Shown in pieces: positions 10,630-30,872 of a stretch of 64,000 bases of DNA (its first letter is position 1; every line of letters begins with the position of its first letter). The notes under the pieces were generated by a model. It was not told where the DNA came from, made no database searches, and saw nothing but the letters and a program-made list of their open reading frames with translations. Source of the stretch: Myxococcales bacterium (GTDB lineage Bacteria; Myxococcota; Myxococcia; Myxococcales; UBA5297); assembly GCA_050942745.1 (NCBI GenBank), contig JBMNNX010000003.1, positions 6,767 to 70,766 on the forward strand, written 5' to 3'. Made by a program: the position numbers and the translations under genes.

Positions 10630-10655
10630 CTTTGCGCGTGCCTCCCGCCGCCCCC

Positions 10656-13536: not shown

Positions 13537-13544
13537 GCCCTCCC

Positions 13545-14484: not shown

Positions 14485-15309
14485 TCAGCCGAGCGCCCGC
14501 TCGATGGCGGCGAACTGCGCGGGCGAGAGGTTCTCGGCGCGCTCCTTGGGATCGATCCCCGCGGCCTCGAGAGCGGCGGCGATGCGCTGGGGATCGCCGA
14601 GCGACTTGTCGGACTTGAGCGTGTTGAGCAACACCTTGCGCCGATGCGAGAAGGCGGCCTTCACGAGCCGCACGAACCTCGCGTGGTCGCCGATAGGCAC
14701 GCGCGGCTGCTCGCGGAGGTCGATGCGCGCGACCGCCGAGTCGACCTTCGGCGGCGGCAGGAAGACGCCCGCGGGCACCTCGAAGGCGAGCTCGACGTCG
14801 GCGTAGGCCTGAAGCAATACCGACAAGAGCCCGTAGTCCCTGCTGCCCGGGCCGGAGGCGATGCGCTGCGCGACCTCCTTTTGAAGAAGGAAGACCGCGC
14901 GGCGCACGTGCGCGCGCTGATCGAGCACCTCAAAGAGGATGGAGCTCGAGAGCTGGTACGGCAGGTTCCCGGCGACGACAGGCCGCTCGACGCCCGCGAG
15001 CTCGGCGAAGTCTACGGCCGCGGCGTTGGCCGCGACGACCTCGACGTTCGGCAGGTCGAGCTCCTTCTCGAGCACCGCCACGAGATCGCGATCGCGCTCG
15101 ACGGCCACCACCCGCGCGCCGGTGGCCGCGAGCTGGCGGGTGAGGTGGCCGAGGCCCGCGCCGAGCTCGACGACGGTGTCGCCCGGGCCGACGCCGCAGG
15201 TCTCGGCGATGCGGCTCAAGTAGTGCTCGTCGCCGAGGAAGTTCTGGCCCCAGTCCTTCTTGGGCCGCAGGCCGTACTTGCGAAGCAGCTCGCCGGGGGT
15301 CGCGCTCAT
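14485..15309 (-). CDS. rsmA: 16S rRNA (adenine1518/1519-N6)-dimethyltransferase
   Basis: MSATPGELLRKYGLRPKKDWGQNFL...VVELGAGLGHLT...GNLPYQLSS is the classic KsgA/RsmA pattern. The start overlaps the tsaD stop by 4 nt (ATGA). Confidence 0.9.
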   Translation of the reverse strand: MSATPGELLRKYGLRPKKDWGQNFLGDEHYLSRIAETCGVGPGDTVVELGAGLGHLTRQLAATGARVVAVERDRDLVAVLEKELDLPNVEVVAANAAAVDFAELAGVERPVVAGNLPYQLSSSILFEVLDQRAHVRRAVFLLQKEVAQRIASGPGSRDYGLLSVLLQAYADVELAFEVPAGVFLPPPKVDSAVARIDLREQPRVPIGDHARFVRLVKAAFSHRRKVLLNTLKSDKSLGDPQRIAAALEAAGIDPKERAENLSPAQFAAIERALG

Positions 15310-16316
15310 GCGGCGCCCCCGAGCCGCCACGCGGGGTCGGCGTTGAGCGCCATCCCGGCGCGCTCGCCGCGCTGGAAGGCATGAGTCCCGGCGACCGCGA
15401 TCATCGCGCCGTTGTCGGTGCACAGCCGCGGCGGCGGCAGGAACAGCTCTATCCCTTCGCCGGCGGCCCGCTCGGCGGCGAGGGCCCGCAGCCGGCTGTT
15501 GGCGGCGACGCCGCCGGAGAGCACGAGCCGGTGCAGCCAGAGCTTTCGGGCGGCCTTCATCGCCTTGCGCGTCAGCGGGTCGGCGACCGCCTCCTGGAAC
15601 GAGGCGCAGAGGTCGGCGAGCTGCTGGCCCTCGGGGTTGGGATGGGCGCGCAGCCAGGTGAGGACCGCGGTCTTGAGCCCGGAGAAGGAGAAGTCGAGCT
15701 CGGCGCCCTTGATCTGCGCGCGCGGGAAGCGGATGGCCTTCTTGTCGCCGGACTGGGCGAGATTGTCGATCTGGATGCCGCCGGGATAGGGCAGGCCGAG
15801 CATCTTGGCGACCTTGTCGTAGGCCTCGCCGGCCGCGTCGTCGCGAGTCTGGCCGACGAGCCGGTAGCGCCCGAAGCCCTCGACGGCGAACAGGCTGGTG
15901 TGGCCGCCGGAGACGACGAGCCCGAGGAACGGCGGCTCGGGCGGGTTGTCGGTGAGGCGGGCCGCGAGCAGGTGGCCTTCGAGGTGGTTGACGCCGACGA
16001 GCGGCTTGCCCGACAGCCAGGCAAGACCCTTGGCGGCCTGCACGCCGACGAGCAGCGCGCCAATGAGCCCCGGCCCGCTCGTCACGGCGATGGCGTCGAG
16101 GTCGGCGAGCCCCACGCCCGCCTTGGCGAGCGCCTCGTCGACCACCGGCAGCACCTGCATCACATGGTTGCGGGAGGCGAGCTCGGGGACGACACCGCCC
16201 CAGCGCCGGTGGACCTCGATCTGCGACGAGACGACGTCCGAGAGCGCGACCCGCCCGTCGCGCACCACGGCAGCGGCGGTCTCGTCGCAGGACGTCTCGA
16301 TTCCGAGTACGAGCAC
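15306..16316 (-). CDS. tsaD: tRNA N6-adenosine threonylcarbamoyltransferase
   Basis: MLVLGIETSCDETAAAVV...HLEGHLLA...SGGHT...SGGVAANSRLR is the TsaD/Kae1/Gcp signature. 336 aa. Confidence 0.95.
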   Translation of the reverse strand: MLVLGIETSCDETAAAVVRDGRVALSDVVSSQIEVHRRWGGVVPELASRNHVMQVLPVVDEALAKAGVGLADLDAIAVTSGPGLIGALLVGVQAAKGLAWLSGKPLVGVNHLEGHLLAARLTDNPPEPPFLGLVVSGGHTSLFAVEGFGRYRLVGQTRDDAAGEAYDKVAKMLGLPYPGGIQIDNLAQSGDKKAIRFPRAQIKGAELDFSFSGLKTAVLTWLRAHPNPEGQQLADLCASFQEAVADPLTRKAMKAARKLWLHRLVLSGGVAANSRLRALAAERAAGEGIELFLPPPRLCTDNGAMIAVAGTHAFQRGERAGMALNADPAWRLGGAA

Positions 16317-16612
16317 GTTGTCTCCTGAAGAGCGGGCATCCGGCGTGGACAGACCGCGCGCAGGTGCTGGTCCCGACCGGATCGGCGCGGGCGTTCGAGC
16401 CCGAGGGCCGGCGAGGTTCTACCTCAATCGAAAACACGCGTCGCGACCGGGCACCGCCCGGTCGAACCTCGGGCTTCACGCTCCGAGGAGCCGGCCGTCG
16501 GGGAGGGCGGAGCTGGAGCGGCGCCGTCCATCCGAAACACGCGTCGAGCGTCCGCCGTCCATCCAAGTGGCGCCAATCGAGAGCCTTCGGCGAGCTTCGC
16601 CCGGAACAAACT

Positions 16613-16647
16613 CTCGACCCTCGACCCTCGACCCTCGACCGTCGCCC
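16613..16647. repeat. heptanucleotide microsatellite (CTCGACC)x4 plus one degenerate unit
   Basis: ctcgaccctcgaccctcgaccctcgaccgtcgccc, directly abutting the stop codon (16648-16650) of the response-regulator gene. Confidence 0.75.
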
Positions 16648-19600
16648 TCACCTCAAATCCTTGAGGATGATCTTCACCTCCGCGGCAAAGTCCCCGTTCG
16701 GATCGAGCGCGAGGTAGCGCTGATAGGCGCGGGCGGCATCCTTGTTGCGGCCCATCATCTGATAAGCCGTCCCCAGGGCGACGTGGCCGCGGGCGTGGTC
16801 GGGAGCCCTCGCCAGGCCCTGCTCGAGAAACGGGATGGCCGTCTTGGGCGAGGTCTCGACCAGCGAGAGGCCGAGCCCGAGCAAGGCCTCGGTTCCCGTG
16901 GGATTGACCTTCAGCGCCTTCTTGAAGTCGGCGACCGCGAGTTTGAGCTTGTTGCGCGAGAAGTGCTTGTTCCCCGACTTGACGTACCGGGCGTACTCGA
17001 CCTCGGGGTCGTCGCCGGGGGCCGGCTTCTCCTTCTTCGCGCCTTCGTCGCCGCTGCCCTGAGGCTCGGTTGCCTGCGCCGTGGCGCTCGCGTCGGCGGG
17101 CTCGCCCGCATCGGCAGGCTCGGTCGCCGCGACCGGCGACGTGTCGGCGGGAGGCGTCGCAGTCGAGTCGACGACGGCGGGCGCATCGCCACCGGCGCGC
17201 GCGGAATCCGCGCCAGGATCGGCCTTCGGCGGCTCGTCCGACGCGGGATCGCTCGGCAGTGCAGGTTGCCCGTCCTCGACGGCCACGGGCGCGCTCTTGC
17301 TTCCGAGCAACTTCCAGGCTGCGAACCCGCCCACCGCCAGCACGAGCAGGACGACGACGACGGGCCAGCGGCGCTTCGGCGCCAGGCCGGCTCGGGCCCA
17401 CTCCTCCTCGATGGAGGCCGTGTCATCGACCTGCGCGGGCAAGGCCTCGAAGGGCGCGGACGCGATGGGCGACGGCGCGATGGGCGCGGGATCGAACGAA
17501 CGCGCCGGCTCGACCGGCGGCGTGGGGCCAGAGCCTTCAACGAAGGAGATGTAGGCGCCAGACGAGGGCAGCGACGGCTTCTCGAGCTCGCGCAACGGCT
17601 CGGCGGCCGCCCCGCCGAAGACCGGAGCCCGAAGCGGCTCCTGCTCGGCGACGCCCGGATCGGCGACCTCGGTCAGCGGCAACGGCGCGGGCTGCGCCAT
17701 CGCCTCCGTGAGCGGGATGGCCGCCACCGGCGCCGCGGGCGCCGGCTCGGCGGGCGCCGGCTGCGCAGGCTCGGGCGCGGCGAGCGGCGCGGGGCTCATC
17801 TCCGCCGCCGGCTTCGCCCTGCCGAAGAAGATGTCGGCCGGGGTCGGGGCGCGGCCGAGGCCAGCGGCGGGCTCGTCGGCGCCGGCTGCCGCAGGCAGCT
17901 CAAGCGGATCGGGGGGCGCGAGCCACGAGGCCCAGCCCTCGGTCGTCGGCACCGAGCGCCTGGCCGGCGCCGAGGCCTGGGCGGCCGCTTCGGCCGGTTC
18001 GCCCGGTTCGGCCGCCTCGGCCGCTTCGCCCGGTTCGGCGCCCGCCGGCGTGGGCTCGGCTCCGGGCACCGGCGTCTTCGCCAACTCGTCGCTGCCGCGC
18101 GGCTCGAAGAAGAAGACCTGGGCGCGCTTCGGCTCGCCGGGCGGCTCCTCGGCCGGGCTCGCGGCAGCCGGCTGCTCGGCCGGGGAGGCCGGCTGCTCGG
18201 CCGGCGGCGGGGAGGCCGGCTCCTCCTTCGGACCGCTGAACCAGACGCTGCCCTGCGCATCTCCGGCCGTCGCCTCGCCCACATTCCCAGGAGCGACCGG
18301 CGCGCTGCCGGCATCCGGCTCGCTGGGGGCGGGCTCGTTCCCCTGCGCAGGCGCTGGAGAATCGGCCTGCGGCGCCGCGGAGTCGCCCGCGGGCGCGGCC
18401 CAGGCCGAACCGCCCTCCGGCGCGCTTTCCGGCGGCGCGGGCGAGAAGGCCGCAGCCGAAGGCTCGGCCGCTGGCTCTCCCTCGGGGGCGGCCCACTGGG
18501 CCGGATGCGAAGCCTCGATCGAGGGCCCCTCTGCCGCGTCCGCCGGGGCCTCCGGCGCCGCGGCGGCCACCGCCTGCTGAACTGCAGTGTCCGTCGAGGG
18601 CTCGCCTTCCGGGGAGGCCCATTGAGCTGGCGCCGGCGGCTCGGCTCTGGGCGCTTCGGCCGTGTCCTGCGCCTGCGCGCCCGGCGCGGGCTCGCCCCGC
18701 TCGCCGGGCTGTGGCTCGGCCAGCAGCCACTGCTCGATGTCCTTGGGCTTGGGCTCCTTGCGCGGCTTGCTCTCGCCGACCTCGCGGATGAGCCCCTCGA
18801 AGTACAGCTTGCTGACGATGCCGAGCGCGGCGAGGTCGTCAAAGTCCGAATCGTCGATGAGCTGCTCGAGCGAGCGCTGGCCGTCAAAGAGCCGCAGCAG
18901 GCCGTTTATCTCGTCGGGGATCTCCGCGAGCCGCTCGGCGAGTTGCCGGTAGTCGATCTCGAAGACGGTGCTCAGCGGGGGAAGCTGCTCGAGCATCCGG
19001 CCCCACTCGTCGATGCGGCGCATGCCCTCCATCAGCAGGCCCTGCGTCGACATCTGCAAGCGGTCCTCGCGCTCGTGCGGCCCGAACTCGAGCTCGAAGG
19101 TGCCCTCGCTCGCGTTGAGCAGCCGGTAGAAGGCGTTCTCGCCCTTCAGGCGCCCGAACTCGGCGTCTACGATCTTGCCGTCGCGAAAGTAGATGCGCGC
19201 GTCCTTGCCGCCGACCTTCAGGCGCATCGTGCCGGTCTTGCGGCCCATCTCGAAGGTCTGCACCAGATCGACGACGCCCATGTCGCCGAGGTTGCCCGAG
19301 AACGCCTTGCCCTCCTTGCGCTCGCGCTCCATGCGCTCTTTCTCGCGCTTGGAGAGGAGGATCTTCACGCGGGCGACGATCTCTTTGATGTAGATGGGCT
19401 TGGTCAGGTAGTCCTCGACGCCCAACTCGAGGCCCTTGAGCTTGTGCTCGACCGACTTCTGCGCGGTCAGGAAGATGAACGGCAGGCCCTTGAACCGCTC
19501 GTCCTCCTTGAGCCGGCGGCACAGCTCGTAGCCGTCGATCCCCGGCAGCTTGGTGTCGCTGATGACCAGGTCCGGGCTACTGATGGCCACCTTCTGTAGC

Positions 19601-19716
19601 GCGTCGTCGCCGCTGACCGCGGTGGTGACCGAAAAGCCCGCCTTCTTCAGCGAGACCTCCATCACCCGAAGGCTCTTAGGGTCGCCGTCTACCAGCAAGA
19701 GATGCTGCTTGGCCAC
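16648..19716 (-). CDS. response regulator receiver - DUF4388/PATAN - Pro/Ala/Glu-rich linker - TM - TPR protein
   Basis: ORF 16648..19752. The GTG at 19716 has a GGAG 8 nt upstream. Receiver motifs [30 protein letters not shown]-like [27 protein letters not shown]...[13 protein letters not shown]. About 550 aa of low complexity. One TM helix ([18 protein letters not shown]). C-terminal TPRs. Confidence 0.85.
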
Positions 19717-19908
19717 GGTGGTGCTCCAGTCGAGAAAGGCGCCCCAGCGCACGGGCGCCCGCGCTGCCTGCCGGTCGCGTCGGCGGCCAAAAAAGCCTCG
19801 TAATGCGACCGGTTATCTTTCACGGAGGGCCCGGTTGGCGTCAAGCGTTCGCCCGGCTACGATGACCTCCGCTCAATAGCCTGTCCGCCCCCCAGGAGGG
19901 CCTGCGAG

Positions 19909-20238
19909 ATGACCGATCTTCGCCGCCACAAGCGCAAGCCTCTCGCCGTCGAATTCCGCTGCCGCGACGAGTCGGGAGCCGGCACCCTGCAGTTCGGCAG
20001 TGGCGACCTGTCGGCCGGGGGCGCCTTCCTGCGCTCGGACCTGCTGCTCGAGCAGGGCGAGCGGCTCTGGATTGAGGTCGAGCTGCCGGGCCGCGAGCGC
20101 CCGGTGCGCGCCGAGGCGCGCGTCGCCTGGGTGCGCCGCTTCCCCACCGCCGGCCAGGCGGGCGGGATGGGCATCGAGTTCCTGGGCATGACCGAGGAGG
20201 ATCGGCGCGCGGTCGAGTCGTTCGTCGAGGGGGCCTGA
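19909..20238 (+). CDS. PilZ domain protein (putative c-di-GMP receptor)
   Basis: 109 aa. RxxxR (RRHKR) and D-x-S-x-x-G (DLSAGG) motifs at the canonical spacing. AGGAGGG RBS upstream. Confidence 0.8.
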   Translation: MTDLRRHKRKPLAVEFRCRDESGAGTLQFGSGDLSAGGAFLRSDLLLEQGERLWIEVELPGRERPVRAEARVAWVRRFPTAGQAGGMGIEFLGMTEEDRRAVESFVEGA

Positions 20239-20258: not shown

Positions 20259-23200
20259 TCACTTGAAGAAGCCTCCGCCGCCCTTCTTGCGCCGCATCTC
20301 GATGAGCCGCAGCTCGGTCGATGCCTCGGCGTTCTTCGGGTTGACGGCGACCGCGGCGCGGAAAAACTTCTCGGCCCTGGCGAGGTCGTTCTCGACCCGA
20401 GCCATGACGCCGAGCGTGTAGTGCGCCCGGTCGCACTCGCGGTCGAGCCGCAGCGCCTGCTCGAGCTTGGCCTTTATCTGCGGCATGTTCGAGCGCTGCG
20501 CGGGGTCGAGGTACATCGCCCAGGCCTGCATGGCGAGGTGGAGCGCCTTGTTGCTCTCGGCGAAGGCCTTGCCGAAGAGCTCGGCGGCGGCGGCGAACTC
20601 CTTCTTCTTGAGATGCAGGTCGGCCTGCTTGAGCGTCACCTCGAGGCTCGAGGCCTTGGGCGCCTGGGACTGAGACGGGGCGGCGAGCCGCATCAGGTAC
20701 ATGCTGCGCTTGGCGTCGTCGTACAGCGTCTCGTACGCCTCGGTCAGCGCGGCGAAGATGTCCTTCACCTTGGGGGTGAGGTTCGCGAGCGCCGACGGCA
20801 GGCGGTCCGGGTGGAAGACCTTCACCTGCGAGAAGTAGGCGGCCTTGACCTGCTCGCCGTTCGCTTCGCGCTGCAGGCCGAGGCGCGTGAACAGGTCCTC
20901 GCGGGCGATGCCGATGTGCCGCGCCTCGATCTTCTTGGCGAGCGCGATCTCTTCGGGGCTCAGGGTCGGCTGCTTGGCGGGCGCCGCAGGCGGCGAGGCT
21001 GCGCTCGGGGCGCTGGAAGGCTTCTCGACGACGCCGCCCTCAACAGCCGCCTGCCGCGGCAGCACGCCGAGGTTGTCGAAAGCGCGACGCAGCAGGCGCT
21101 GGCGCCGGGCGCGCACGTCCTTGGGGTCAGTCACGTCTTCACCATCGCCATAGAAGGGTTCATCCGCGGGCACGGAGAACTCGTCCTCGGGTGACAAAGC
21201 TGCATTCCAGCCGCCCTCGATAGCCGGCGGCGTCTTCGGTCTGCCCCGGTGACTGACGGCCTCGCCCTCTGGCGCCTCCATCCAGTCCTCGCCCGGGCCC
21301 TGCGTCGCAGCCGGCTGGTGCGGCGAAGGGAAGTCGCGCGGGGTCGGGGCCTCGAAGTCCGTCTTCCCTGCCATCGCTTCCAGCACCGAGGCGATTCCGC
21401 CCGGCTCAACCAGCCCGCCGCGCGACGGCTCGAACACCGGCGGCACCTCGAGGATCGGGGCGGGCGCGGGCTGCTCTGGGGTGACCGGCGGCGGCCGCAC
21501 CGGATGAAGAACGGGCGGCGCCACCGCCGGCGCGGACGGGAAGAACGGAATCGGAGGAGGCTCGAACTCCACCGAGTCGTAGTCCAGAGGCTCGTTCGAC
21601 GACCAGGACCGGTCCGCCGCGGGAACGGGCGGGGGGCACGACGGGGGCTGGTCGTCGAAGACCATGTCCATCAAGCTCGGGCCCTCGGGGGCCGCCTCGA
21701 CCGGCGACGGGATCGAAGGAGGAGTGGCGGACCCGACGACCGAGTCCCATGAGCTGACGACCGGGGGCTCGTCGATGAGCGCTGCGCCCCCCAGCTCGAT
21801 CGCCTCTTCCGGCGACAGATCGATCTCTGGGGTCGCCTCCATCTCCACTGGGCGAGGCGGCTCGGCCTCGCCGGCAGGGAGCTGAGCTGCGAGGTCGCGG
21901 GCTTGCTGCAGGCGGGCCTGGCGCTCTGCTTCGGCCGCAAGCCTGGCCGCGAAGAGGCGCTCGTACTCCTGAGGGTCCCAGGCCTCCGTCCGCTCGCCAA
22001 TCTCGCGAGCGGCGTCGAGGAGAGCCTCCTCGGAGCCATGCGCCGGGACCTCCTGCGACAGGTCCAGCTCCAGCTCGATAGGCTCGGACTCGCCCGCGGG
22101 CGCCTCTTCGATCAGATCGTCCTCGCCGAGGGCCGCCGGAGAATCGAGGCCCGAATCGAGCGAGAGCCCCGCGGTGGCGAGCTCCATCTCCTCGGCCGCG
22201 ACCGCGATGCCGGTCAGCTCCACGGACGCAGGTCCCGACGGCAAAGTGCCCGGTCGCTCGATCAGACGTTCATCAGCGAGCTGCTTCTCGAGCTGCTCTG
22301 CGCGCGCGCGCTCCTGCTCGATCTGCGCTCCGAGCGCCGCGAGCTCCGAGACAGCCGTCGCTTCGGCCGCGCCGCTGCGGCAGGCGCGCAGCGAGGCCTC
22401 CTCCGCGTCCTGGATCCTCTGCTCGAGCTCCCGCGCGCCCGCCTCCGCCTCGATCCGGGCGGCCTCGTCCTGATGCTGGGCCTGCCGCAGCGCGGCGAGC
22501 CTCTCTTCGAGCGCTCGGACCCGCTCGCGCTCCTCGCGCAGCCGCGCCTCGGCCTGGGCGCGCGCGCCTTCGATCGCCTGCGCAGATCCCGAAGCGCGAG
22601 CGAGCCGTTCGCGCTCGAGCGCCTCTTGCTCGAGCCGGCGTCGGGCCTCGTCGGCGTTCCGAAGTTGACCCTCGAGATCCCCGCGGACCTTTTCGGAGTG
22701 TGCGCGCGCCGCCTGTTCGGCCTCGCGCCGCGCCTGGGCCTCGACGATCTCGGCGGCGAGCGCGTCGGCGCGCTCGCGCTCCTCGCGCAGCTTCTCCTCG
22801 AGCTCGGCGCGCAGCGCTTCGATGATCGAACGCTGCTCTTGTTCGGCCTGCTCGCGGGCGCGCCGCTCCCTCTCTTCGGCCTCCTTCTCGAGCCGCTCGC
22901 GCAACTCGTCGGCGGCCTTCAGCTTCTCGGCGAGCTCGTCGCGGGCACGCTCGGCCTCGGCCCGCGCCGCCTCTTCGGCCTCGCGGTGGGCCTTGGCCTC
23001 CGCGATTTCGGCGGCGAGCGCCTCGGCGCGCTCGCGCTCCTCGCGCAGCTTCTCCTCGAGCTCCGCGCGCAGCGAATCGGCGCGGTCGCGCCCTTCGCCT
23101 TCGGCCTGCTCGCGGGCGCGCCGCTCCCGCTCCTCGGCCTCCTTCTCGAGCCGCTCGCGCAGCTCGTCGGCGGCCTTCAGCTTCTCGGCGAGCTCGTCGC

Positions 23201-26200
23201 GCGAACGCTCGGCCTCGGCCCGCGCCGCCTCCTCAGCCTCGCGGCGGGCCTTCGCCTCCGCGACCTCGGCGGCGAGCGCCTCGGCGCGCTCGCGCTCCTC
23301 GCGCAGCCTCTCCTCGAGCTCGGCGCGCAGCGAATCGGCGCGGTCGCGCCCTTCGCCTTCGGCCTGCTCGCGGGCGCGCCGCTCCCTCTCTTCGGCCTCC
23401 TTCTCGAGCCGCTCGCGCAGCTCGTCGGCGGCCTTCAGCTTCTCGGCGAGCTCGTCGCGCGAACGCTCGGCCTCGGCCCGCGCCGCCTCTTCCGCCTCGC
23501 GGCGGGCCTTGGCCTCCGCGACCTCGGCGGCGAGCGCATCGGCGCGCGCGCGTTCCTCGAGCAGCCTCTCCTCGAGCTCGGCGCCCAGCGCTTCTGCACT
23601 CTTGCGGCCCTCGTCCTCGGCCTGCTCGCGGGCGCGCCGCTCCCGCTCCTCGGCCTCCTGAGCGAGCCGCTCGCACGCTTCGGTGACTTGCGCGAGCTTC
23701 GCGCCCAGCTCCTCGCGCGCCTTCTCCGCCTCGGCGCGCGCGGCCTCTTCGGATTCCCGCTGCGCCGCGGCCTCGCCGCGCTCCCGGTCGAGCGCCTCGG
23801 CGCGCTCGGCCTGCTCGCGCAGCCGCACCTCGAGCTCCGCTCGGAGGTGATCGGAGCTCTGGCGCGCCTCTTCCTCTGCGCGCTCGCGCGCCTGGCGCTC
23901 CTTCTCCCGCGCCTCGGCCTCGAGCTGGCGCAGCGCCTCCTCGGCCTCGCGAACCTTCGCCTCGAGCTCCTCGCGGGCCCGCGCCGCCTCGGCGCCCGCG
24001 GCGGCGGCGGCGGCGCAGGCCTCGCGCTCCTCGGCGATCTCCGCCTCGAGCGCCTCGACCCACTCGGCCTGCTCGCGGAGCTGCTCTTCCTTCTCGGCGC
24101 GGATCTGCTCGGCGCTCTTGCGCGAGTCCTCTTCGGCCTTCTCGCGCGCCCGCTGCTCCTTCTCGCGCGCCTCCTCGAGCGCCCGCTTGCGCTGCTCGGC
24201 GAGCTCGGCCAGCCGCGCCTCGAGCCCGGCGCAGGCCTCGGCGAGCTTCGCGCGCTCCGACTCTTCGGCCTCGCGCGCGGCGATGGCCTTCTCGAGCGCG
24301 GCGTCGAGCTCTTCGACCCGCGCTCGCTCGCGGGCGATAGCCTCCTGCGCCTCGGCGCGCTGTCGCTCTTCGGCCTCGCGCAGCTCGCGGTCGCGCTGTT
24401 CCTGGCGCTCGTTCGCCGCGCGCGCCGCGTCGGCCTCTTCGCGCCGCAGCGACTCTTCGGCCTCGCGGACCTTTGCCTCGAGCTCCTCGCGCGCCCGCGC
24501 GAGCTCGCCGCGGAGCCGCTCGGCCTCGCTGCGCGCCTGCTCGAGCCCGGTGACGCGAAGCTCGAGAGCGGCAGCGCGCTCCTTCTCCCGCGCGAGCTGC
24601 TCTTCGCCCTCGAGCCGGGCCTTTTCGACGGCCTCGTGGCAAAGCTGCTCGGCGCGCTCGCGCGCCTGCTGCTCGCAAAGCTTCGACTGCTCCTCGAGCC
24701 GAGCCCGCGCTTCGGCAGCGGCGCGCACCCTGGCCTCGAGCTCGGCGCACTCCTTCTCGGCCTCGGCGCGGGCGGCCTCGTCCGCGCTCCACACCGCCTC
24801 GAGCTCGGCGCTGCGCCGCTCGAGCTCGTCGGCGCGGGCGCGCTCCTCGGCGACGAGCTGCTCGGCCGCGGCGGCGATCTCCGCGGCCTCCCTCGCGGCG
24901 CGCTCTTGCGCCTCGCAGAGGACCGCCTGAACAGCCCCGCCCTCGTCGCCGGCCTCCACGCGCTGGGCAGCCGACTGCAGCTCCTGCTCGGCCTCGCGCG
25001 CCAGCTCGAGCGCCGCGTCCCGGTCGGCCTCGGCGCGCCGGCGCGCCTCTTCTGCCCGAGCGCGCTCGGCCTCGGCGCCGGCGAGCTTCCTTTCGAGCTC
25101 GTCGGCGCGCTGGCGCTCCTCCTCGAGCCGCTCGCTTGCGCGCTGCTCGGCCTCGGCGCGGGCCGCTTCGATCAGCGCGCGCGCCTCCTGCTCGGCCTGC
25201 GCGAGCCGCTCCTCGGCGGCCCGCTGCGCCTCCGCGGCGGCCTTCTCGCGAGCCTGACGCGCCTCTTCGAGCGCCCTGTCGGCGCGCGCCTCGGCCTCGC
25301 GGCGCTCCTCCTCGAGCCGCTCGCGCTCGCGCAGCTCCTCGGCCTGACGCGCCTCCTCCTCTTCGAGCCGCGCGCACAGCTCGCCGCGGCGCCGCCGCAG
25401 CTCCTGCTCTTGGGACTGCGCCTGCGACTCGATCTCCCGGGCCAAGGCCTCCGCGGCCTCGCGCGCCTGCTGCTCGAGCTCGCGGGCGCGCCGCTCGGCC
25501 CGCTCGCGGACCTCCTCGGTCGGATCGATCGCTTCGACGCCGCCCAGCGCCATGAGCGCCGCGGCCAGCCAACGCACGCGGGCCGGGTCTACCCCGCGCT
25601 CGATGAGATCCTCGGGGCCGCCGCCCGCGCGCCAGCTCTCGAGCGCCTCGCGCTCGCGCGGCTCGAGCCGCAGCGTCGAGGCGAGCTGCGCGAAGCGGGC
25701 GCCGAGCCGCAAGACCCGCGGGCCGAGCGCGGCGAGCATCGCGGCGACGTAAGCCTGCGCGCCCGGCGACGCGAGCGCCTCGGCGATGCAGCCGTCGGCG
25801 CCGTCCGCGTCGAGCGCCAGCCCCGAGGTCCACCCCGGAGGCTCTTCGGACCGAAACTCGAAGCGCCCGTCGGCAAGGCGCCCCAGCGCGCGCAGGTGCT
25901 CGAAGAGCTGCAGCCGCATCCCCTCGCGCACCCCGTCCTCGTCGAGCGCGCCCATCTCGCAGAGCACCTCGGGCAGCGGCCTGCCGCGCTCGAGCTGCGG
26001 CAGCGCGCGATCGAGGGTCTCGAGATCGATGAGCCCGCTCTGGACGAGCACCTGGCCGAGCGGGCGGAAGCCGACCGCGACGCGCGCGCCCGCCGGCACG
26101 CCCTGGCGCATGAAGAGCCGGCTGGTGCCGCCGCTCCCGTCGATGCGCAGCACGCCCGTCGCGCCGCGCTCTCGGGCGGACAGCAATAGCTCGGCGAGCG

Positions 26201-26249
26201 GGTGCTCGCTCAGCCGTCCGTGGGAAAGTTCAGGGTCGCCGGGGCGCAT
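20259..26249 (-). CDS. giant DUF4388/PATAN - coiled-coil - Pro-rich - J-domain - TPR protein (1996 aa)
   Basis: N-terminus LSEHPLAELLLSARERGATGVLRIDG...LFMRQGVPAGA (PATAN-like). About 1000 aa of E/A/R/L heptad-rich sequence containing 86-aa repeats. Pro-rich segment. J domain with HPD (YFSQVKVFHPDRL...EAYETLYDDAKR). TPR-like C-terminus. Confidence 0.85.
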   Translation of the reverse strand: MRPGDPELSHGRLSEHPLAELLLSARERGATGVLRIDGSGGTSRLFMRQGVPAGARVAVGFRPLGQVLVQSGLIDLETLDRALPQLERGRPLPEVLCEMGALDEDGVREGMRLQLFEHLRALGRLADGRFEFRSEEPPGWTSGLALDADGADGCIAEALASPGAQAYVAAMLAALGPRVLRLGARFAQLASTLRLEPREREALESWRAGGGPEDLIERGVDPARVRWLAAALMALGGVEAIDPTEEVRERAERRARELEQQAREAAEALAREIESQAQSQEQELRRRRGELCARLEEEEARQAEELRERERLEEERREAEARADRALEEARQAREKAAAEAQRAAEERLAQAEQEARALIEAARAEAEQRASERLEEERQRADELERKLAGAEAERARAEEARRRAEADRDAALELAREAEQELQSAAQRVEAGDEGGAVQAVLCEAQERAAREAAEIAAAAEQLVAEERARADELERRSAELEAVWSADEAARAEAEKECAELEARVRAAAEARARLEEQSKLCEQQARERAEQLCHEAVEKARLEGEEQLAREKERAAALELRVTGLEQARSEAERLRGELARAREELEAKVREAEESLRREEADAARAANERQEQRDRELREAEERQRAEAQEAIARERARVEELDAALEKAIAAREAEESERAKLAEACAGLEARLAELAEQRKRALEEAREKEQRAREKAEEDSRKSAEQIRAEKEEQLREQAEWVEALEAEIAEEREACAAAAAAGAEAARAREELEAKVREAEEALRQLEAEAREKERQARERAEEEARQSSDHLRAELEVRLREQAERAEALDRERGEAAAQRESEEAARAEAEKAREELGAKLAQVTEACERLAQEAEERERRAREQAEDEGRKSAEALGAELEERLLEERARADALAAEVAEAKARREAEEAARAEAERSRDELAEKLKAADELRERLEKEAEERERRAREQAEGEGRDRADSLRAELEERLREERERAEALAAEVAEAKARREAEEAARAEAERSRDELAEKLKAADELRERLEKEAEERERRAREQAEGEGRDRADSLRAELEEKLREERERAEALAAEIAEAKAHREAEEAARAEAERARDELAEKLKAADELRERLEKEAEERERRAREQAEQEQRSIIEALRAELEEKLREERERADALAAEIVEAQARREAEQAARAHSEKVRGDLEGQLRNADEARRRLEQEALERERLARASGSAQAIEGARAQAEARLREERERVRALEERLAALRQAQHQDEAARIEAEAGARELEQRIQDAEEASLRACRSGAAEATAVSELAALGAQIEQERARAEQLEKQLADERLIERPGTLPSGPASVELTGIAVAAEEMELATAGLSLDSGLDSPAALGEDDLIEEAPAGESEPIELELDLSQEVPAHGSEEALLDAAREIGERTEAWDPQEYERLFAARLAAEAERQARLQQARDLAAQLPAGEAEPPRPVEMEATPEIDLSPEEAIELGGAALIDEPPVVSSWDSVVGSATPPSIPSPVEAAPEGPSLMDMVFDDQPPSCPPPVPAADRSWSSNEPLDYDSVEFEPPPIPFFPSAPAVAPPVLHPVRPPPVTPEQPAPAPILEVPPVFEPSRGGLVEPGGIASVLEAMAGKTDFEAPTPRDFPSPHQPAATQGPGEDWMEAPEGEAVSHRGRPKTPPAIEGGWNAALSPEDEFSVPADEPFYGDGEDVTDPKDVRARRQRLLRRAFDNLGVLPRQAAVEGGVVEKPSSAPSAASPPAAPAKQPTLSPEEIALAKKIEARHIGIAREDLFTRLGLQREANGEQVKAAYFSQVKVFHPDRLPSALANLTPKVKDIFAALTEAYETLYDDAKRSMYLMRLAAPSQSQAPKASSLEVTLKQADLHLKKKEFAAAAELFGKAFAESNKALHLAMQAWAMYLDPAQRSNMPQIKAKLEQALRLDRECDRAHYTLGVMARVENDLARAEKFFRAAVAVNPKNAEASTELRLIEMRRKKGGGGFFK
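22845..23618 (-). repeat. three near-identical 258-bp (86-aa) tandem repeats inside the coiled-coil gene
   Basis: The GGCCTGCTCGCGGGCGCGCCGCTCC unit recurs at 22845, 23103, 23361 and 23619. The protein unit is RRAREQAEGEGRDRADSLRAELEERLREERERAEALAAEVAEAKARREAEEAARAEAERSRDELAEKLKAADELRERLEKEAEERE. More diverged copies flank it over roughly 22.5-25.4 kb. Confidence 0.85.
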
Positions 26250-26303: not shown

Positions 26304-26786
26304 CTACCGGGCGCGAAAAGGCTGTTGTCGAATCGCCTCGTAGGTCGCGATCCCGACCGCGGTGGAGAGGTTGAGGCTGCGCCGCTCGGGCAGCATGGGG
26401 ATGCCGACGGTCTGCTCCGGGAAGGCCTCGACGAAGGAAGCGGGCAGGCCTTCGGGCTCGGAGCCGAACACGAGGTGATCGCCGGGCCGAAACTCGGCCT
26501 CCCACAGCGAGCGCTCGGCGCGGGCGCTGAAGAGGTGGCGCCGGGCCGCGCCGTGCTCGGCGAGGTAGTCGTCGAGCGTCGGGTAGTAGCGCTGGAAGAC
26601 CTTGTCCCAGTAGTCGAGCCCGGCGCGCCGCAGATCCTTCTGGGCGATGGAGAAGCCGAGCGGGCCGACCAGGTGCAGCCGCGCCCCGGTCACCGCGCAC
26701 AGGCGCGCCACGTTGCCGGTATTCGGCGGGATCTGGGGCTCGACGAGCACCAGGTTGAGCGGAGGGTCGATTCTGGGCAGGAACAC
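26304..26786 (-). CDS. trmL: tRNA (cytidine/uridine-2'-O)-methyltransferase, SpoU/TrmL type
   Basis: LNLVLVEPQIPPNTGNVARLCAVTGARLHLVGPLGF...LRRAGLDYW...MLPERRSLNLSTAVGIATYEA matches E. coli TrmL end to end. The start is ambiguous: GTG at 26786 gives 160 aa, ATG at 26849 gives 181 aa. Confidence 0.8.
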   Translation of the reverse strand: MFLPRIDPPLNLVLVEPQIPPNTGNVARLCAVTGARLHLVGPLGFSIAQKDLRRAGLDYWDKVFQRYYPTLDDYLAEHGAARRHLFSARAERSLWEAEFRPGDHLVFGSEPEGLPASFVEAFPEQTVGIPMLPERRSLNLSTAVGIATYEAIRQQPFRAR

Positions 26787-27201: not shown

Positions 27202-27300
27202 GCGCGCGGCGCGGGCGGCTTCGCGCACCTGCCTGGCTGGCAAGCGGCCTTTCGGGCAGCGACCTTGAACCGAGTCGGACTTGAGCTAGGATTTCCGGCC

Positions 27301-28098
27301 ATGCGACCTTCAGCCTGCCTCGGGGCGCTGCTCGCGCTCCTTCTCCCGTCGGTGGCCGCCGCCCAGTTCGAAGGGCTCGACCTCACCGAGGATGCTCCCG
27401 AGCAGACGCCCGAGCAGCCGCAAACGGCTCCGGAGGCGCCAACGCCACCTTTGGATATCGACGAGCCCGCGGCCAGCTCCGAGCCGCGGCTGAGCGAGCT
27501 CGACATCACCTCCGAGGACCGGGTCAAGAGCGTGCAGCGGCGCGGCTTTCTCAAGCGCAACCGCTTCGACCTGACGCCCATGGCCTTCGTGCAGCTCAAC
27601 GACGCGTACTACCCCAAGTTCGGCCCCGGAGCGCGCGCCTCCTACCACCCGCACGAGAGCTTCGGCCTGGGCGTGCGCTTCCTTCAATACAACCTGGTCC
27701 CGACCGACAACGTGCGCCTCGCCAAGCGCCAGCTCCAGTCGCGCCTGCCCTCGGTGCTCCCGAAGATGTCGTTCGCGCTCGACCTTATCTGGTCGCCCAT
27801 CTACGGCAAGATCAGCATCTTCAACGCCATCCGGCACTTCGACCTGTTCGTGATCGGCGGCGCCGGGGCGATCTTCACCCAGACCTCCGACGCCGACGGG
27901 CCGCACCTCTCGACGCACATCGGCATCGGTCAGCGCTTCTCCATCAACGACTTCCTGGCCGTCGACGTCTCGATCATCGAGGCCATCTACTCGGACCGCC
28001 CGGGTGGCGCCAACAAAGCGGTCCTGCAGAACGTGCTCACCCTCAACGCCGGGCTCAGCGTGTTCCTGCCCTTCTCCTTCGACTACCAGGAGCCGTGA
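27301..28098 (+). CDS. outer-membrane beta-barrel domain protein, GltB/GltA (NfsA/NfsB)-like paralogue 1
   Basis: Signal peptide MRPSACLGALLALLLPSVAAA. Shares RFDLTP...Y.P.....G...SYH..ES.G.G..F and WSPIYGKISIF...HFDLFVIGGAG with the next gene. Terminal ...FSFDYQEP. Confidence 0.7.
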   Translation: MRPSACLGALLALLLPSVAAAQFEGLDLTEDAPEQTPEQPQTAPEAPTPPLDIDEPAASSEPRLSELDITSEDRVKSVQRRGFLKRNRFDLTPMAFVQLNDAYYPKFGPGARASYHPHESFGLGVRFLQYNLVPTDNVRLAKRQLQSRLPSVLPKMSFALDLIWSPIYGKISIFNAIRHFDLFVIGGAGAIFTQTSDADGPHLSTHIGIGQRFSINDFLAVDVSIIEAIYSDRPGGANKAVLQNVLTLNAGLSVFLPFSFDYQEP

Positions 28099-28127
28099 CC
28101 GTGCGCCGCTCGCCCAAGCTCGAGGCC

Positions 28128-28871
28128 ATGACCCGTCGAAACCTCCCCGCGCTGCTCGCCCTGCTCGCGGCGCTCGCGCTTCCCGGCAGCGCGCTCGGCG
28201 CACAGCCAGCCGCCCAGGAGCCGGAGAACGAAGGCGAGAAGGCCGCACCCATCGATCTCGAGGACAAGATGCCGCCGGTGTCGGGCCGGCTGTTCCTCAA
28301 GGACGGCCGCTTCGAGGTCTCGCCGACCGTCTCGGTCAGCCTCGCGGACCCCTTCTTCCAGAAGCTCAGCGGCGGGTTGAAGCTCAACTACCACATCGTC
28401 GAGTCCATCTCGGTCGGCCTGTTCGCCAACTACTCGCTCAACATGCCCTCGAGCTCGGTCAGCGTCTGCAAGACCGACGGGAGCTGCAAAGGTCCCGAGC
28501 TCAAAGAGCTCACCGACGTGCCGGGCAAGCTGGGCCTGATGGCCGGGTTCGACGTCGCCTGGGCGCCGATTTACGGCAAGTTCAGCGTGCTGGCCGAGAA
28601 GGTGCTGCACTTTGACCTCGCCTTCATCGGCGGGCTGAGCACCATCCAGTACCAGGCGCCCGGCGGCACCAACACCTTCGCCATCGCCTGGCACTTCGGC
28701 GTCGGCCAGCGCTACTACATCACCCCGAGCCTGATGCTGCGCGTGGAGCTGCGCGACTACATCTACAACGCTCAGACCGTCAAGCTCGGCACCTCCTCGA
28801 GCAAGCTGCAGAACCAGATCATGTTCGAGCTCGGCCTCTCCTACTTCGCCGGCTCCGGCCACGAGGAATAA
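28128..28871 (+). CDS. outer-membrane beta-barrel domain protein, GltB/GltA (NfsA/NfsB)-like paralogue 2
   Basis: Clean signal peptide MTRRNLPALLALLAALALPGSALG. An alternative GTG at 28095 overlaps the upstream stop as GTGA. Paralogous motifs RFEVSP..., WAPIYGKFSVL...HFDLAFIGGLS. Confidence 0.7.
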   Translation: MTRRNLPALLALLAALALPGSALGAQPAAQEPENEGEKAAPIDLEDKMPPVSGRLFLKDGRFEVSPTVSVSLADPFFQKLSGGLKLNYHIVESISVGLFANYSLNMPSSSVSVCKTDGSCKGPELKELTDVPGKLGLMAGFDVAWAPIYGKFSVLAEKVLHFDLAFIGGLSTIQYQAPGGTNTFAIAWHFGVGQRYYITPSLMLRVELRDYIYNAQTVKLGTSSSKLQNQIMFELGLSYFAGSGHEE

Positions 28872-28874
28872 CCG

Positions 28875-30872
28875 GTGAGCCAGACCTTCGCGCACCTCCC
28901 CACCCCCGTGCCCGCCGCGCGCCCGGCGCGCCCGCTCCTGGCCGCGGCCGCCGCCCTGGCAGCGCTGCTCCTCCTGGCGCCTTGGGCCGACGCGAACGCC
29001 GCGCCGCGCCCGCCAGCCTCGCTCGCCGCGATGGCCTCGGGCCAGATCTCCTTCGAAGGGCTCGACCTGAGCGACGACGAGCCCAAGCCCAAGAAGAAGC
29101 GCACGCAGCGCAAGGTGAAAAAGCCCAAGCGCGACTCGTCGCGCGAGACGGCCCGCACGCCCCCGGGCGGCAAGCTCGAAGAGAAGGCGGACGACTCCTC
29201 GTCGCAGCAGCAGCCGCCGGCGCTGCCGGGCCTCGGGATCGACCTGAGCGGCAGCAGCCCCGCGCCCACCGAGCAGCCGAAGCCGACTCCGCCTCCCGCG
29301 CCCCCCGCGCCGCCGCCGAAGCAGGCGCCGGTGATGACCTTCGACGCGGTCGACGTCTCGGGCAAGAGCGCCGAGCGCCAGCGGCTCGACGCGGCCGTCA
29401 ACCTCTTCAAGCAGAAGCGCTACGAGACCGCGGCGCTCGCCTTCTTCGAGGTGATCAAGGACCCGAAGATGGCCGAGCTGAAGGACGAGGCCGACTACAT
29501 GCTCGCGAAGACGCTCTATCGCATGGGCATGTACCACTCGGCGCTCAACGAGTTCAAAAAGCTGCTCGCCAAGGGTCCGTCGAACAAGTACTTCAAGAGC
29601 TGCCTCGAGTGGCTCTTCTACATCGCGCACAAGACGGTCAACGAGCAGATCGTCCTCGACACCGTGGCGCTCTACGCCAACGAGGAGTTCCCCGAGCGCT
29701 TCCGCTCCGAGTTCCGCTACCTGCTGGCGCGCTACCACTTCTATCGAGGCAAGGCGCTCGACGAGGTCGGCCAGGCCGAGGAGGCGAAGAAGAGCCTCGA
29801 CGAGGCCAAGCGCCTGGTCCTGATGGTGCCCAGGGACGACGCCTTCTACGCGAAGGTGAAGTACCTGGAGGGCGCCATCTTCTTCAAGGAAGGGGCCTTC
29901 GCCCAGGCGCTCGAGTCGTTCAAGGAGGTGGTGCGCATCAACAACCCGCGCACCAGCCCCAACGCCGACGCGCGGCTGCGCGAGCTCGCGTTCATGCAGC
30001 TTGCGCGCACGCACTACGGCCACAAGCAGAACCGCTACGCCATCTTCTATTACGACAAGGTCGCGCGCGGCTCCGACCAGTGGCTCGAGTCGCTCTTCGA
30101 GGCGAGCTGGGCGCACTTCCGCATCGGCGAGTACGAGCGGGCGCTCGGCAACCTGATCACCCTCTCCTCGCCGTTCTTCAAGGACGAATACTTCCCCGAG
30201 GCGCTCATCCTCAAAGCGGTCATCTACTACGAGAACTGCCGCTACCGCGAAGCGCGCGCCATCCTCGAGGAGTTCGAGCAGACCTACATGCCGGTGCACA
30301 ACGAGCTGGAGAAGATCACCGGCGCGAACACCGACGCCCAGGGCTACTGGGCCATCCTCGCCGAGGTGCAGAAGCGCAACCGCGAGGGCCGGCGCAGCAC
30401 GGGCCTGCTGCTCGAGCGCATCCTGAAGCTGGCGCTCACCGACAAGGACCTGAAGGCGGTCAACGATTCGATCCTCGAGCTCGAGGCCGAGATGGACTCG
30501 ATCCGCGAGCGCCCCGATCTCTTCAAGTACTCGGAGCTCGCCAAAGCGCTCAACGAGGAGATGAAGGTCGAGCGCAGCGGGCTGATGTCGAAGGCCGGCA
30601 TCCTCGCCAAGGCGAAGCTCGAGTTCGAGCTCGGCCAGCTCAAGGACCTGCTCGGCCAGGCGCTGCGCATCAAGTTCGAGACGAGCACGATGGAGAAGAA
30701 GTTCCTCGAGGACTCGCTCGCCTCGCCGGGCAAGGTCGAGGTCGTCAAGAAGTACAAGTACTCGGTCGCCGTCACCGACGAGCAGGTCTACTGGCCCTAC
30801 GAGGGCGAGTACTGGCGTGACGAGCTCGGCACCTACGAGTACACGCTAACCAAGGGCTGCAAGGCGAAGTAG
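28875..30872 (+). CDS. secreted Pro-rich / TPR-like protein, GltC (NfsC)-like
   Basis: GTG start 4 nt after the upstream stop. Signal-like LLAAAAALAALLLLAPWADANA. Pro-rich segment, then helical TPR-like repeats (LFKQKRYETAALAFFEVIKDPKM...YMLAKTLYRMGMYHSALNEFKKLL...). 665 aa. Confidence 0.7.
   Translation: MSQTFAHLPTPVPAARPARPLLAAAAALAALLLLAPWADANAAPRPPASLAAMASGQISFEGLDLSDDEPKPKKKRTQRKVKKPKRDSSRETARTPPGGKLEEKADDSSSQQQPPALPGLGIDLSGSSPAPTEQPKPTPPPAPPAPPPKQAPVMTFDAVDVSGKSAERQRLDAAVNLFKQKRYETAALAFFEVIKDPKMAELKDEADYMLAKTLYRMGMYHSALNEFKKLLAKGPSNKYFKSCLEWLFYIAHKTVNEQIVLDTVALYANEEFPERFRSEFRYLLARYHFYRGKALDEVGQAEEAKKSLDEAKRLVLMVPRDDAFYAKVKYLEGAIFFKEGAFAQALESFKEVVRINNPRTSPNADARLRELAFMQLARTHYGHKQNRYAIFYYDKVARGSDQWLESLFEASWAHFRIGEYERALGNLITLSSPFFKDEYFPEALILKAVIYYENCRYREARAILEEFEQTYMPVHNELEKITGANTDAQGYWAILAEVQKRNREGRRSTGLLLERILKLALTDKDLKAVNDSILELEAEMDSIRERPDLFKYSELAKALNEEMKVERSGLMSKAGILAKAKLEFELGQLKDLLGQALRIKFETSTMEKKFLEDSLASPGKVEVVKKYKYSVAVTDEQVYWPYEGEYWRDELGTYEYTLTKGCKAK

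Follow-up and report, generated by a model that had tools for sequence, protein, structure and literature searches.

The window analysed here is a stretch of 64,000 nucleotides (nt) from a Myxococcales bacterium (contig JBMNNX010000003.1), and the gene in question lies at 20259..26249 of this window, where one stop-free open reading frame (ORF) on the minus strand starts with ATG and encodes 1996 amino acids (aa). The product is a class C J protein whose targeting domain is unusual and whose helical spacer is exceptional. Five parts could be distinguished by composition, namely a globular part (aa 1-243), a Pro-free part (aa 244-1332, hereafter the rod), an acidic Pro-rich part (aa 1333-1780), the J domain, and an Ala/Leu/Lys-rich C-terminal part with tetratricopeptide repeats (TPR). 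An initial annotation, made from the DNA letters, had described a single uninterrupted ORF without giving its strand, and had listed a PATAN domain, a long helical middle, a Pro-rich spacer, a J domain and TPR helices; both the frame and this domain inventory were borne out. The features of the gene and of its neighbours are collected in Table 1.

Table 1. Features of the J-protein gene and adjacent genes in the 64,000-nt window. AF2, AlphaFold2; pLDDT, predicted local distance difference test; REC, receiver; TRF, Tandem Repeats Finder.
Feature	Window positions	Strand	Evidence
J-protein gene, complete ORF: PATAN, charged helix, Pro-rich linker, J domain, TPR	20259..26249	minus	ATG start, 1996 aa plus stop
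PATAN/DUF4388 domain, aa 10-143	25821..26222	minus	Pfam PF14332, AF2 model
MshE-N/GSPII-like four-helix insert, aa 58-124	25878..26078	minus	NCBIfam, PDB sequence match, Foldseek
Post-PATAN helical region, possibly winged-helix-like, aa 148-241	25527..25808	minus	AF2 pLDDT ~80-90; conserved in ortholog alignment
Pro-free E/A/R-rich helical rod, aa 244-1332, 1089 aa	22254..25520	minus	composition, charge-pair, periodicity and moment tests
Tandem repeat, 258 bp (86 aa), 4.4 copies, 87% matches, aa 805-1182	22705..23837	minus	TRF, protein-level rows
Acidic Pro-rich linker, presumably disordered, aa 1333-1708	21126..22253	minus	composition
Nearly invariant basic helix PKDVRARRQRLLRRAFDN, aa 1709-1726	21072..21125	minus	columns R16 to G29 of two alignments; AF2 helix 10-27
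J domain, aa 1785-1856; HPD aa 1813-1815 (nt 20805-20813)	20682..20897	minus	Pfam, PDB, AF2
Three TPR repeats and capping helix, aa 1868-1990	20280..20648	minus	Pfam (weak), family profile, AF2, Foldseek
Conserved basic C-terminal tail EMRRKKGGGGFFK	20262..20300	minus	alignments; family consensus RKKK...KKG[FL]F[GRK]
SpoU/TrmL-type methylase gene, directly upstream, 54-nt gap	26304..26783	minus	Pfam SpoU_methylase E=4.6e-29; synteny
PilZ gene, 109 aa, RxxxR (RRHKR) and DxSxxG (DLSAGG) intact	19909..20238	plus	Pfam PilZ E=1.4e-16; TIGR02266 67 bits
(REC-)PATAN-TPR regulator gene, 1034 aa from first start codon (start provisional)	16648..19752	minus	Response_reg 7e-25, DUF4388 7e-24, TPR

An open frame by itself is weak proof of a gene here, because this 75% GC low-complexity DNA is also stop-free on the antisense strand. 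Over the rod, a shadow ORF of 1428 aa rich in L, G, A and R runs from window position 21903 to 26189 (+); this ORF arises from the GC-rich composition of the repeats, and gene-calling programs could be misled by it. The G+C contents of the three codon positions form a coding-like pattern in the gene and a symmetric one in the rod part. A promoter scan gave no match, as expected for a 70% GC genome. Conservation of the frame was then assessed in 80 genomic loci, for which the longest ORF from first start codon to stop was taken, and the frame was open for 1000-2150 codons wherever enough upstream DNA was present. In about 35 genomes (Myxococcaceae, Archangiaceae and metagenome-assembled genomes, complete chromosomes included), the PATAN end and the J-TPR end shared one open frame of 1000-2150 aa, with PATAN N-terminal and J-TPR C-terminal, despite rods hundreds of codons apart in length. 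The ORFs of Myxococcus xanthus (L033, 1706 aa), Corallococcus coralloides (L053, 2038 aa), C. exercitus (L057, 2147 aa), Hyalangium (L074, 2081 aa), Archangium minus (L029, 1640 aa) and Cystobacter fuscus (L065, 1370 aa) all start with a homologue of the window PATAN region. Without selection, insertions and deletions would be expected to break the frame; a frame kept across rods that differ by hundreds of codons therefore strongly supports a single translated product and counts against an artefact.

The J domain was identified by both sequence and structure comparison. Pfam PF00226 matched aa 1785-1851 (E=3e-10; 40.4 bits, cut-off 27.8), the domain was 30% identical to the J domain of Escherichia coli DnaJ (E=9e-10), and the family profile retrieved solved J domains from the PDB at E values of about 1e-11 to 1e-14. 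In the C-terminal AF2 model (56 sequences, pLDDT 88.7), helices at aa 1786-1789, 1798-1812, 1819-1843 and 1845-1856 formed the four-helix J fold with pLDDT above 95. The HPD motif was invariant in 56 homologs, and the helix II lysines were invariant or near-invariant. Thus, the HPD region both scores (Pfam) and models (AF2) as the canonical J domain that the initial annotation had called. The model of canonical DnaJ (TIGR02349, DnaJ_bact, class A/B) reached 36.7 bits against a cut-off of 377.2, with the J domain alone matching, and this indicated a class C J protein. As class C J proteins are architecturally diverse, the earlier premise that J-domain proteins are normally compact was overstated.

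After the J domain, a single-sequence Pfam search gave a weak TPR match (aa 1941-1973; 17.8 bits, under the cut-off of 27.8). The family profile matched CTPR proteins at E of 1e-17 or better, and AF2 placed seven helices between aa 1868 and 1990, equal to three repeats and a cap, so that the region was assigned to the TPR family. Foldseek gave template-modelling scores of 0.71-0.78 to the TPR domains of CTPR3, SGT, RPAP3, CHIP and PP5. Despite the SGT/RPAP3/CHIP-like fold, the residues of the Hsp70/Hsp90 EEVD carboxylate clamp could not be convincingly aligned by eye. The Pro-rich spacer named in the initial annotation is present at aa 1333-1780, with 16% Pro and a net charge of -53, and a Pro-rich linker of 260-630 aa (rod end to HPD) follows the rod in every rod-bearing ortholog. 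Within this spacer, the near-invariant RRQRLLRRAxxNLG motif forms a helix ahead of the pre-J helix in the C-terminal AF2 model. The basic tail could, as a conjecture, be a membrane-binding or Hsp70-binding element.

At the N terminus, PF14332 matched at E=4e-11 (43.5 bits, cut-off 25), placing the domain in the PATAN/DUF4388 family. The 134 matched residues span 102 profile positions, and AF2 puts four helices (aa 64-124) between beta strands at aa 32-56 and 129-133. Pfam and AF2 thus both showed the helical insertion by which the PATAN family is recognised, reportedly the "alpha-clip" of Makarova et al. 2006. The N-terminal AF2 model (aa 1-245; 10 sequences) is of moderate confidence, with a best pLDDT of 81.8 and 58-65 for the other four models, and comprises three beta strands, the four-helix insert, one more strand, and helices up to aa 241. 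Its credible PDB matches were local and confined to the insert. Foldseek aligned the insert with Vibrio cholerae MshE-N carrying cyclic di-GMP (c-di-GMP) (5htl; root-mean-square deviation [rmsd] 1.1 Å over 55 aa, 31% identity), Thermus thermophilus PilF GSPII-B (8pdk) and the Xanthomonas citri PilB-N/PilZ complex (7lkn). Foldseek matches of the PATAN beta core to actin and kinases had rmsd >15 Å and were rejected, leaving no credible PDB match for the core. A PDB sequence match to PilF GSPII was found at E=3.8e-6, and the MshE-related c-di-GMP motif model NF053729 matched aa 63-109 with 31.8 bits, under its cut-off of 38.

MshEN-type c-di-GMP receptors carry two tandem 24-residue motifs, RLGxx(L/V/I)(L/V/I)xxG(L/V/I)(L/V/I)xxxxLxxxLxxQ (PMC5013675). 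Motif I of the insert, RPLGQVLVQSGLIDLETLDRAL, fits the relaxed form of this motif save the last position. Motif II is degenerate, with Pro in place of the conserved Gly, and a 61%-identical relative (P0113) has Gln there. Orthologs of Myxococcaceae and Archangiaceae have QSPA or QTPV where the window protein has RPLG. Judged from these motifs, direct c-di-GMP binding by the insert would be feasible in the window lineage, but it is not predicted. Since the Myxococcaceae and Archangiaceae orthologs have neither the motif residues nor the PilZ gene of the window locus, c-di-GMP control cannot be family-wide.

The rod consists of E 27%, A 25%, R 18% and L 9%, has zero proline over 1089 residues, and contains 30% E+D, 21% R+K (net charge -96) and 13% large hydrophobics. 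The initial annotation had read this region as a heptad coiled coil of about 1000 residues. The heptad pattern was evaluated by our own calculations, with a tropomyosin sequence as the control; the AF2 models cover the end domains only. No significant peak of 3.5-residue periodicity was seen in the rod. Its amphipathic moment (28-residue windows, 102.9 degrees) was 0.21 versus 0.20 after shuffling, whereas tropomyosin gave 0.34 versus 0.18. At the best-phase a/d positions of 28-residue windows, large hydrophobics made up 31% in the rod, 24% in shuffled sequence and 57% in tropomyosin, and charged residues made up 30% in the rod versus 5% in tropomyosin. The tropomyosin control behaved as expected, and the rod lacked both the apolar a/d positions and the 3.5-residue periodicity of a heptad coiled coil. 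The long region itself exists, but its coiled-coil assignment was not sustained.

Charge pairing was strongly non-random. In the window rod, opposite-charge i/i+4 pairs were enriched (z about +10) and same-charge pairs depleted (z about -10); for the salt-bridge-compatible i/i+3 and i/i+4 pairs, enrichment was at z of +10 to +19, and depletion of same-charge pairs at z of -10 to -15. The rods of M. xanthus, Hyalangium and Archangium are near-perfect (AEEARL)n hexapeptide arrays, in which Leu lags 6, 12 and 18 are enriched about 4-fold and lags 3, 4 and 7 depleted. A Leu at every sixth residue is spread round the helix axis, thus leaving no hydrophobic seam, and on an alpha-helix the array sets Arg at salt-bridge distance from Glu at i±3 and i+4. 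High charge content, i/i+4 pairs, no seam and no Pro are the sequence hallmarks of the ER/K single alpha-helix (SAH), and the rod shows all of them. Therefore, this region is probably an ER/K-like charged single alpha-helix and not a coiled coil.

Rod length ranged from 0 to 1322 aa among orthologs, while composition was uniform (near 33% E, 28% A, 20% R and 12% L, with Lys nearly absent). Even relatives with flanking domains 92-98% identical had unequal rods (861 versus 892 aa; 1161 versus 1081 aa; 1211 versus 1064 versus 1322 aa), and the differences between close relatives were put at 30-150 aa. A fixed ruler, which needs a conserved length, is unlikely given such fast variation; the data agree better with a long spacer of adjustable length, or with an expansion that is tolerated. 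The 86-aa repeat unit, not a multiple of 7, accounts for 378 of the 1089 aa of the window rod. An exhaustive profile search retrieved 433 proteins at E <1e-10, many of them of about 500 aa and matched end to end; several of these were DUF4388-DnaJ-TPR by Pfam, beside long forms of 1256-1597 aa. This widespread compact form marks the rod as a myxobacterial insertion. Rod-less orthologs of 507 aa (L050) and 519 aa (P0014/L081) even occupy the same gene cassette as the long forms. In evolutionary terms, the rod is a plastic insertion in an older PATAN-J-TPR protein of about 500 aa, and it lengthens through slippage or duplication of repeats.

The contour length of the window rod is 1089 × 0.15 nm = 163 nm. 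A single alpha-helix has a persistence length of 15-22 nm, and with this literature range the root-mean-square (r.m.s.) end-to-end distance came to about 67-79 nm. The earlier claim of a J domain more than 100 nm away from PATAN consequently holds for a perfectly rigid rod, but not for the r.m.s. distance. Similarly, the suggestion of a molecular ruler or tether instead of a classical co-chaperone was right in part: a tether is reasonable for a class C protein, whereas the ruler is at odds with the variable length.

Homologs of the C-terminal 297 aa were all from Myxococcota, and most database entries were 250-520 aa long. Word-index searches with the N terminus gave 1 and 7 matches, mostly contig-end fragments, and the family became visible through the exhaustive profile search. 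Many draft Myxococcus and Corallococcus contigs end within or just past the rod (L019, L028, L043, L048, L049, L051, L063, L067, L075 and others), and the N-terminal fragments at such ends are annotated "molecular chaperone DnaJ, partial". The rod repeat thus breaks short-read assemblies, and most of the family is consequently stored in the databases as pieces of 250-520 aa under the names CbpA, "J domain-containing protein" or DnaJ. Exact-sequence look-ups of the window protein, five ortholog candidates and the Corallococcus protein P0072 returned no record. MXAN_2536 was considered as the M. xanthus ortholog and rejected, being a fatty-acid ligase. Literature searches combining DUF4388 or PATAN with Myxococcus, J domain or DnaJ did not retrieve a description of the architecture, and both the PATAN-J architecture and such rods appear unstudied in the searchable literature.

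Gene order around the J-protein gene was conserved. The cassette trmL, J protein, (PilZ), (REC-)PATAN-TPR, tsaD, rsmA was common to 13 of the 13 genomes compared, with trmL upstream wherever the contig reaches that far, and the rod-less PATAN-J-TPR form sits in this cassette as well. The initial annotation had considered co-transcription with trmL, placed 55 nt upstream on the same strand, possible; it is plausible, as the adjacency is conserved, the gap is 54 nt, and no terminator-like site was seen in this gap. The regulator, invariably the downstream neighbour of the J protein, consists of REC, a PATAN domain lacking the insert, a long Pro/Ala-rich region, one predicted transmembrane helix and C-terminal TPR repeats, which would be periplasmic because the predicted helix lies ahead of them. 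In the 13 genomes checked it was syntenic, with 66-73% identity over its first ~350 residues; the L081 copy had no REC match. The convergent PilZ gene lies between the two PATAN genes and occurs at the same spot in some lineages (L001, L006, L044, L047, L050 and L081); at the loci of Myxococcus, Corallococcus and Archangium it is absent.

Several published observations bear on what such a protein might do. In the PatA-type regulators of cyanobacteria, PATAN acts as the output domain and binds PilB1 and PilC, and the PATAN domain of PixE suffices for PilB1 binding and membrane localisation (10.1101/2021.06.11.447907). PATAN genes also tend to adjoin MglA/MglB homologs (PMC4316618). In Nostoc, specialised pairs of DnaK and DnaJ link polysaccharide secretion with type IV pili (PMC9239167). 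Among the 15 Hsp70 paralogs of M. xanthus, SglK and StkA act downstream of type IV pili in regulating exopolysaccharide (PMC4319316), and in a 2026 preprint the J protein SgmC (MXAN_1106) is predicted as a partner of SglK (10.64898/2026.08.28.747804).

We place a probability of about 0.5 on the reading that the window protein is a cytoplasmic class C Hsp70 co-chaperone, docked via PATAN, whose J-TPR end acts across the long charged helix and the disordered linker. PATAN would serve as the docking or output module that anchors the protein to a signalling- or motility-related partner, perhaps, by analogy with the cyanobacterial regulators, at the machinery of the type IV pilus or of polarity. 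The J domain, in which HPD is intact, would activate ATP hydrolysis by an Hsp70/DnaK paralog, and clients or partners would be bound by the three-repeat TPR together with the basic GGFF tail. The two ends would be held apart by the ~1100-residue charged helix (contour ~160 nm, r.m.s. ~70 nm), followed by the ~450-residue acidic Pro-rich disordered linker, so that Hsp70 activation would be confined to a wide yet limited radius around the docking site. The most likely working partner would be the co-oriented adjacent (REC-)PATAN-TM-TPR protein (TM, transmembrane helix), and in the window lineage the neighbouring c-di-GMP-type PilZ protein would probably be a further partner. In a bolder and rather doubtful version, the family would be a hitherto unrecognised signalling co-chaperone, and the PATAN-docked J protein would recruit an SglK/StkA-type Hsp70 at the type IV pilus or polarity apparatus, with input from the adjacent membrane-bound regulator and, in deep lineages, from c-di-GMP by way of PilZ and the insert, and with the >1000-residue helix setting the radius of action. 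If so, the rod would rank with the longest charged single helices on record, and hexapeptide slippage would tune its length between species.

Some observations weigh against a docked co-chaperone acting across a single helix. The Ala content and net charge of the rod are unlike those of textbook ER/K helices. The window rod shows weak Leu i/i+4 and 14-residue regularities, its a/d occupancy is slightly over that of shuffled sequence (0.31 versus 0.24), and amphipathic moments are raised at aa 244-278, 754-789 and 851-878, segments that may form short coiled-coil patches; the single-alpha-helix call itself rests on home-made statistics. Rod-less orthologs indicate that the rod is dispensable for core function. 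Binding of PATAN to PilB is known solely for the distant cyanobacterial PatA-type regulators, and even with the Myxococcus orthologs the window PATAN shares just ~35% identity. Among the genes examined in the window, a subset of its ORFs, no Hsp70 gene was seen. Because trmL, tsaD and rsmA are RNA-modification housekeeping genes, the cassette itself gives no pointer to motility. The functional role of the family members is, moreover, deduced from sequence.

Four other explanations were weighed. A dimeric heptad coiled coil, serving as a rigid ruler to fix the J domain more than 100 nm from PATAN, would agree with 1089 Pro-free residues of strong helix formers, with a mild Leu-Leu enrichment at lags 4, 10, 14 and 18, with the a/d excess over shuffled sequence, and with the generally known precedent of AglZ and FrzS, in which an N-terminal signalling domain is followed by a long coiled coil. 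We nevertheless consider it improbable, since the moment equals that of shuffled sequence (tropomyosin, 1.9-fold over its shuffle) with no 3.5-residue periodicity, 30% of best-phase core positions are charged, the 86-aa repeat is out of heptad register, Leu in orthologs recurs every 6 residues with lags 3, 4 and 7 depleted, and rod length differs between near-identical relatives. An annotation or assembly artefact joining a separate PATAN protein to a ~500-aa J-TPR protein could account for the short database homologs, such as P0072 (513 aa, called by PGAP on a Corallococcus contig of 626 kb), whose conserved internal Met (MAEALRRS...) falls just past the rod in the Myxococcus ORF. This explanation is extremely unlikely, as ~35 independent assemblies, complete chromosomes included, keep one frame despite their rod differences, and many of the short entries sit at contig ends made by the repeat.

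A more serious contender, though still unlikely in our judgement, holds that the compact PATAN-J-TPR is the functional unit and the rod a tolerated low-complexity linker expansion, arising by microsatellite-like slippage of 18-bp units and duplication of larger units, with no role for length or stiffness. The rod-less orthologs of the cassette, the widespread ~500-aa forms, the near-perfect (AEEARL)n arrays of Myxococcus and the quick length change between close relatives all speak for it, and the stop-free antisense frame shows that composition alone keeps such sequence open. However, rods of 500-1300 aa have been kept in frame across Myxococcaceae and Archangiaceae in a lineage-typical size range, and their helix-favouring charge pattern is strongly non-random; the window rod, in addition, is mostly non-repetitive outside its 86-aa array, which suggests that it has long been kept and is not a recent expansion. 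A c-di-GMP-controlled co-chaperone was also considered, in which the insert binds either c-di-GMP or, as X. citri PilB-N does, PilZ, and thereby gates docking or J activity. The local fit of the insert to c-di-GMP-bound MshE-N and PilF GSPII-B (rmsd 1.1 Å, 30-33% identity), the near-complete motif I, retrieval of the PilB-N/PilZ complex, and an intact PilZ gene between two PATAN genes here and in other deep lineages are consistent with such control, but the subthreshold NF053729 score, the G-to-P change of motif II (G to Q in P0113), and the replaced RPLG and missing PilZ gene in Myxococcaceae and Archangiaceae make it quite unlikely. Taken together, the docked class C co-chaperone with a long charged spacer remains the reading that we prefer.

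Beyond the cassette, the wider neighbourhood was conserved in L033 (M. xanthus AM003, 300-19000) and L081, with the order CBS-domain PLP (pyridoxal phosphate) enzyme, APH kinase, NTP-transferase, 254-aa PP2C phosphatase, (DUF192), trmL and J protein, then PATAN regulator, tsaD, rsmA and panB, with panC next in L033. This order may help to map the locus tag of the J protein in M. xanthus DK1622. If the M. xanthus ortholog (L033:5750-10870) were SgmC, genetics would already exist for a protein with an unanalysed architecture. Divergent from trmL in the window, a gliding-motility G2-type cluster at 27265-30872 (+) comprises two outer-membrane beta-barrel genes (TIGR04565) of 277 and 258 aa, GltB- and GltA-sized, followed by a GltC equivalog (NF033756; 925.9 bits, cut-off 450). 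Linkage of the J protein to this cluster was rejected, as the adjacency is absent in M. xanthus and the other genomes checked and was therefore treated as lineage-specific.

On the far side of the regulator gene, four further plus-strand frames were recorded. The last ~70 residues of the frame at 4873-6834 match the N-terminal part of the myxobacterial type IV pilin PilA (NF041775, 66.5 bits, far under the cut-off of 400; Pfam Pilin_PilA, 8.6e-8), and the frame at 6765-8249 has a borderline bactofilin match (27.7 versus 27.9 bits), the boundaries between these two frames being provisional. The product of 10960-12390 carries a myxobacterial Cys-rich acidic repeat (TIGR02232, 57.7 bits) and, after it, some ten RCC1-like "ALKSDGTVVAWG" repeats, and that of 12706-13536 contains calcium-binding-like repeats (EPAGANC.. 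and DGDGELD), with a MYXO-CTERM-like tail at its end (GCS...LALPAILCALQRRR); both are probably secreted.

Myxobacteria have many Hsp70 paralogs, and a conserved, PATAN-bearing J protein is a concrete, testable candidate that could link a specialised Hsp70 to motility, polarity or second-messenger signalling. Rods of 0 to ~1300 residues between the same end domains also provide a natural series on spacer length in tethered signalling, and the rod warns against calling coiled coils from composition alone.

Compared with known systems, the N-terminal end resembles the PatA-type regulators (Synechocystis PixE, PixG and TaxP2; Anabaena PatA) in having a PATAN domain that carries an alpha-helical insertion. 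The neighbouring regulator, with REC and PATAN, resembles them too, whereas the J protein has no receiver domain and its PATAN is fused to J-TPR by a giant spacer. That spacer shares its non-amphipathic, charged and Pro-free character with the ER/K SAH domains (myosin VI and X, caldesmon, engineered ER/K and EAAAK linkers) and with TolA domain II, which is Ala/Lys/Glu-rich and helical. Strong i/i+3 and i/i+4 opposite-charge pairing is likewise common to the rod and the ER/K SAH domains, which are semi-rigid spacers that set the effective concentration between end domains. Unlike these, the window rod is far longer than the examples known to us, Arg-only (K ~0-3%), Ala-rich and net acidic, the Myxococcus rod is a near-perfect hexapeptide array, and the helical monomer state is a prediction from sequence. 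Nostoc punctiforme DnaK1/DnaJ3 and M. xanthus SglK/GrpS (with SgmC as the predicted J partner) and StkA represent the type of system that a PATAN-docked J protein might join. AglZ and FrzS of M. xanthus are polarity and motility proteins with pseudo-receiver domains and genuine heptad coiled coils, and they have no J domain. They share with the window protein a signalling-type domain at the N terminus and, after it, a very long helical region; the window protein differs from what is generally known of them in its PATAN, its non-heptad rod and its J domain. The likeness is to class C J proteins (E. coli DjlA, auxilin/GAK, DNAJC7, DNAJC3, TopJ), in which an HPD-bearing J domain is the sole DnaJ-like part and unrelated domains place Hsp70 activation at a particular site. 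DNAJC7 and DNAJC3 are precedents for TPR combined with J, though with the TPR before the J domain and not after it, and Mycoplasma TopJ is a precedent for an acidic Pro-rich region, the match to the TopJ model being weak (19.4 bits versus a cut-off of 300). What sets the window protein apart from the class C proteins described is a targeting domain, PATAN, that we did not find described for any J protein, and a spacer that is a charged helix of up to ~1300 residues in the family.

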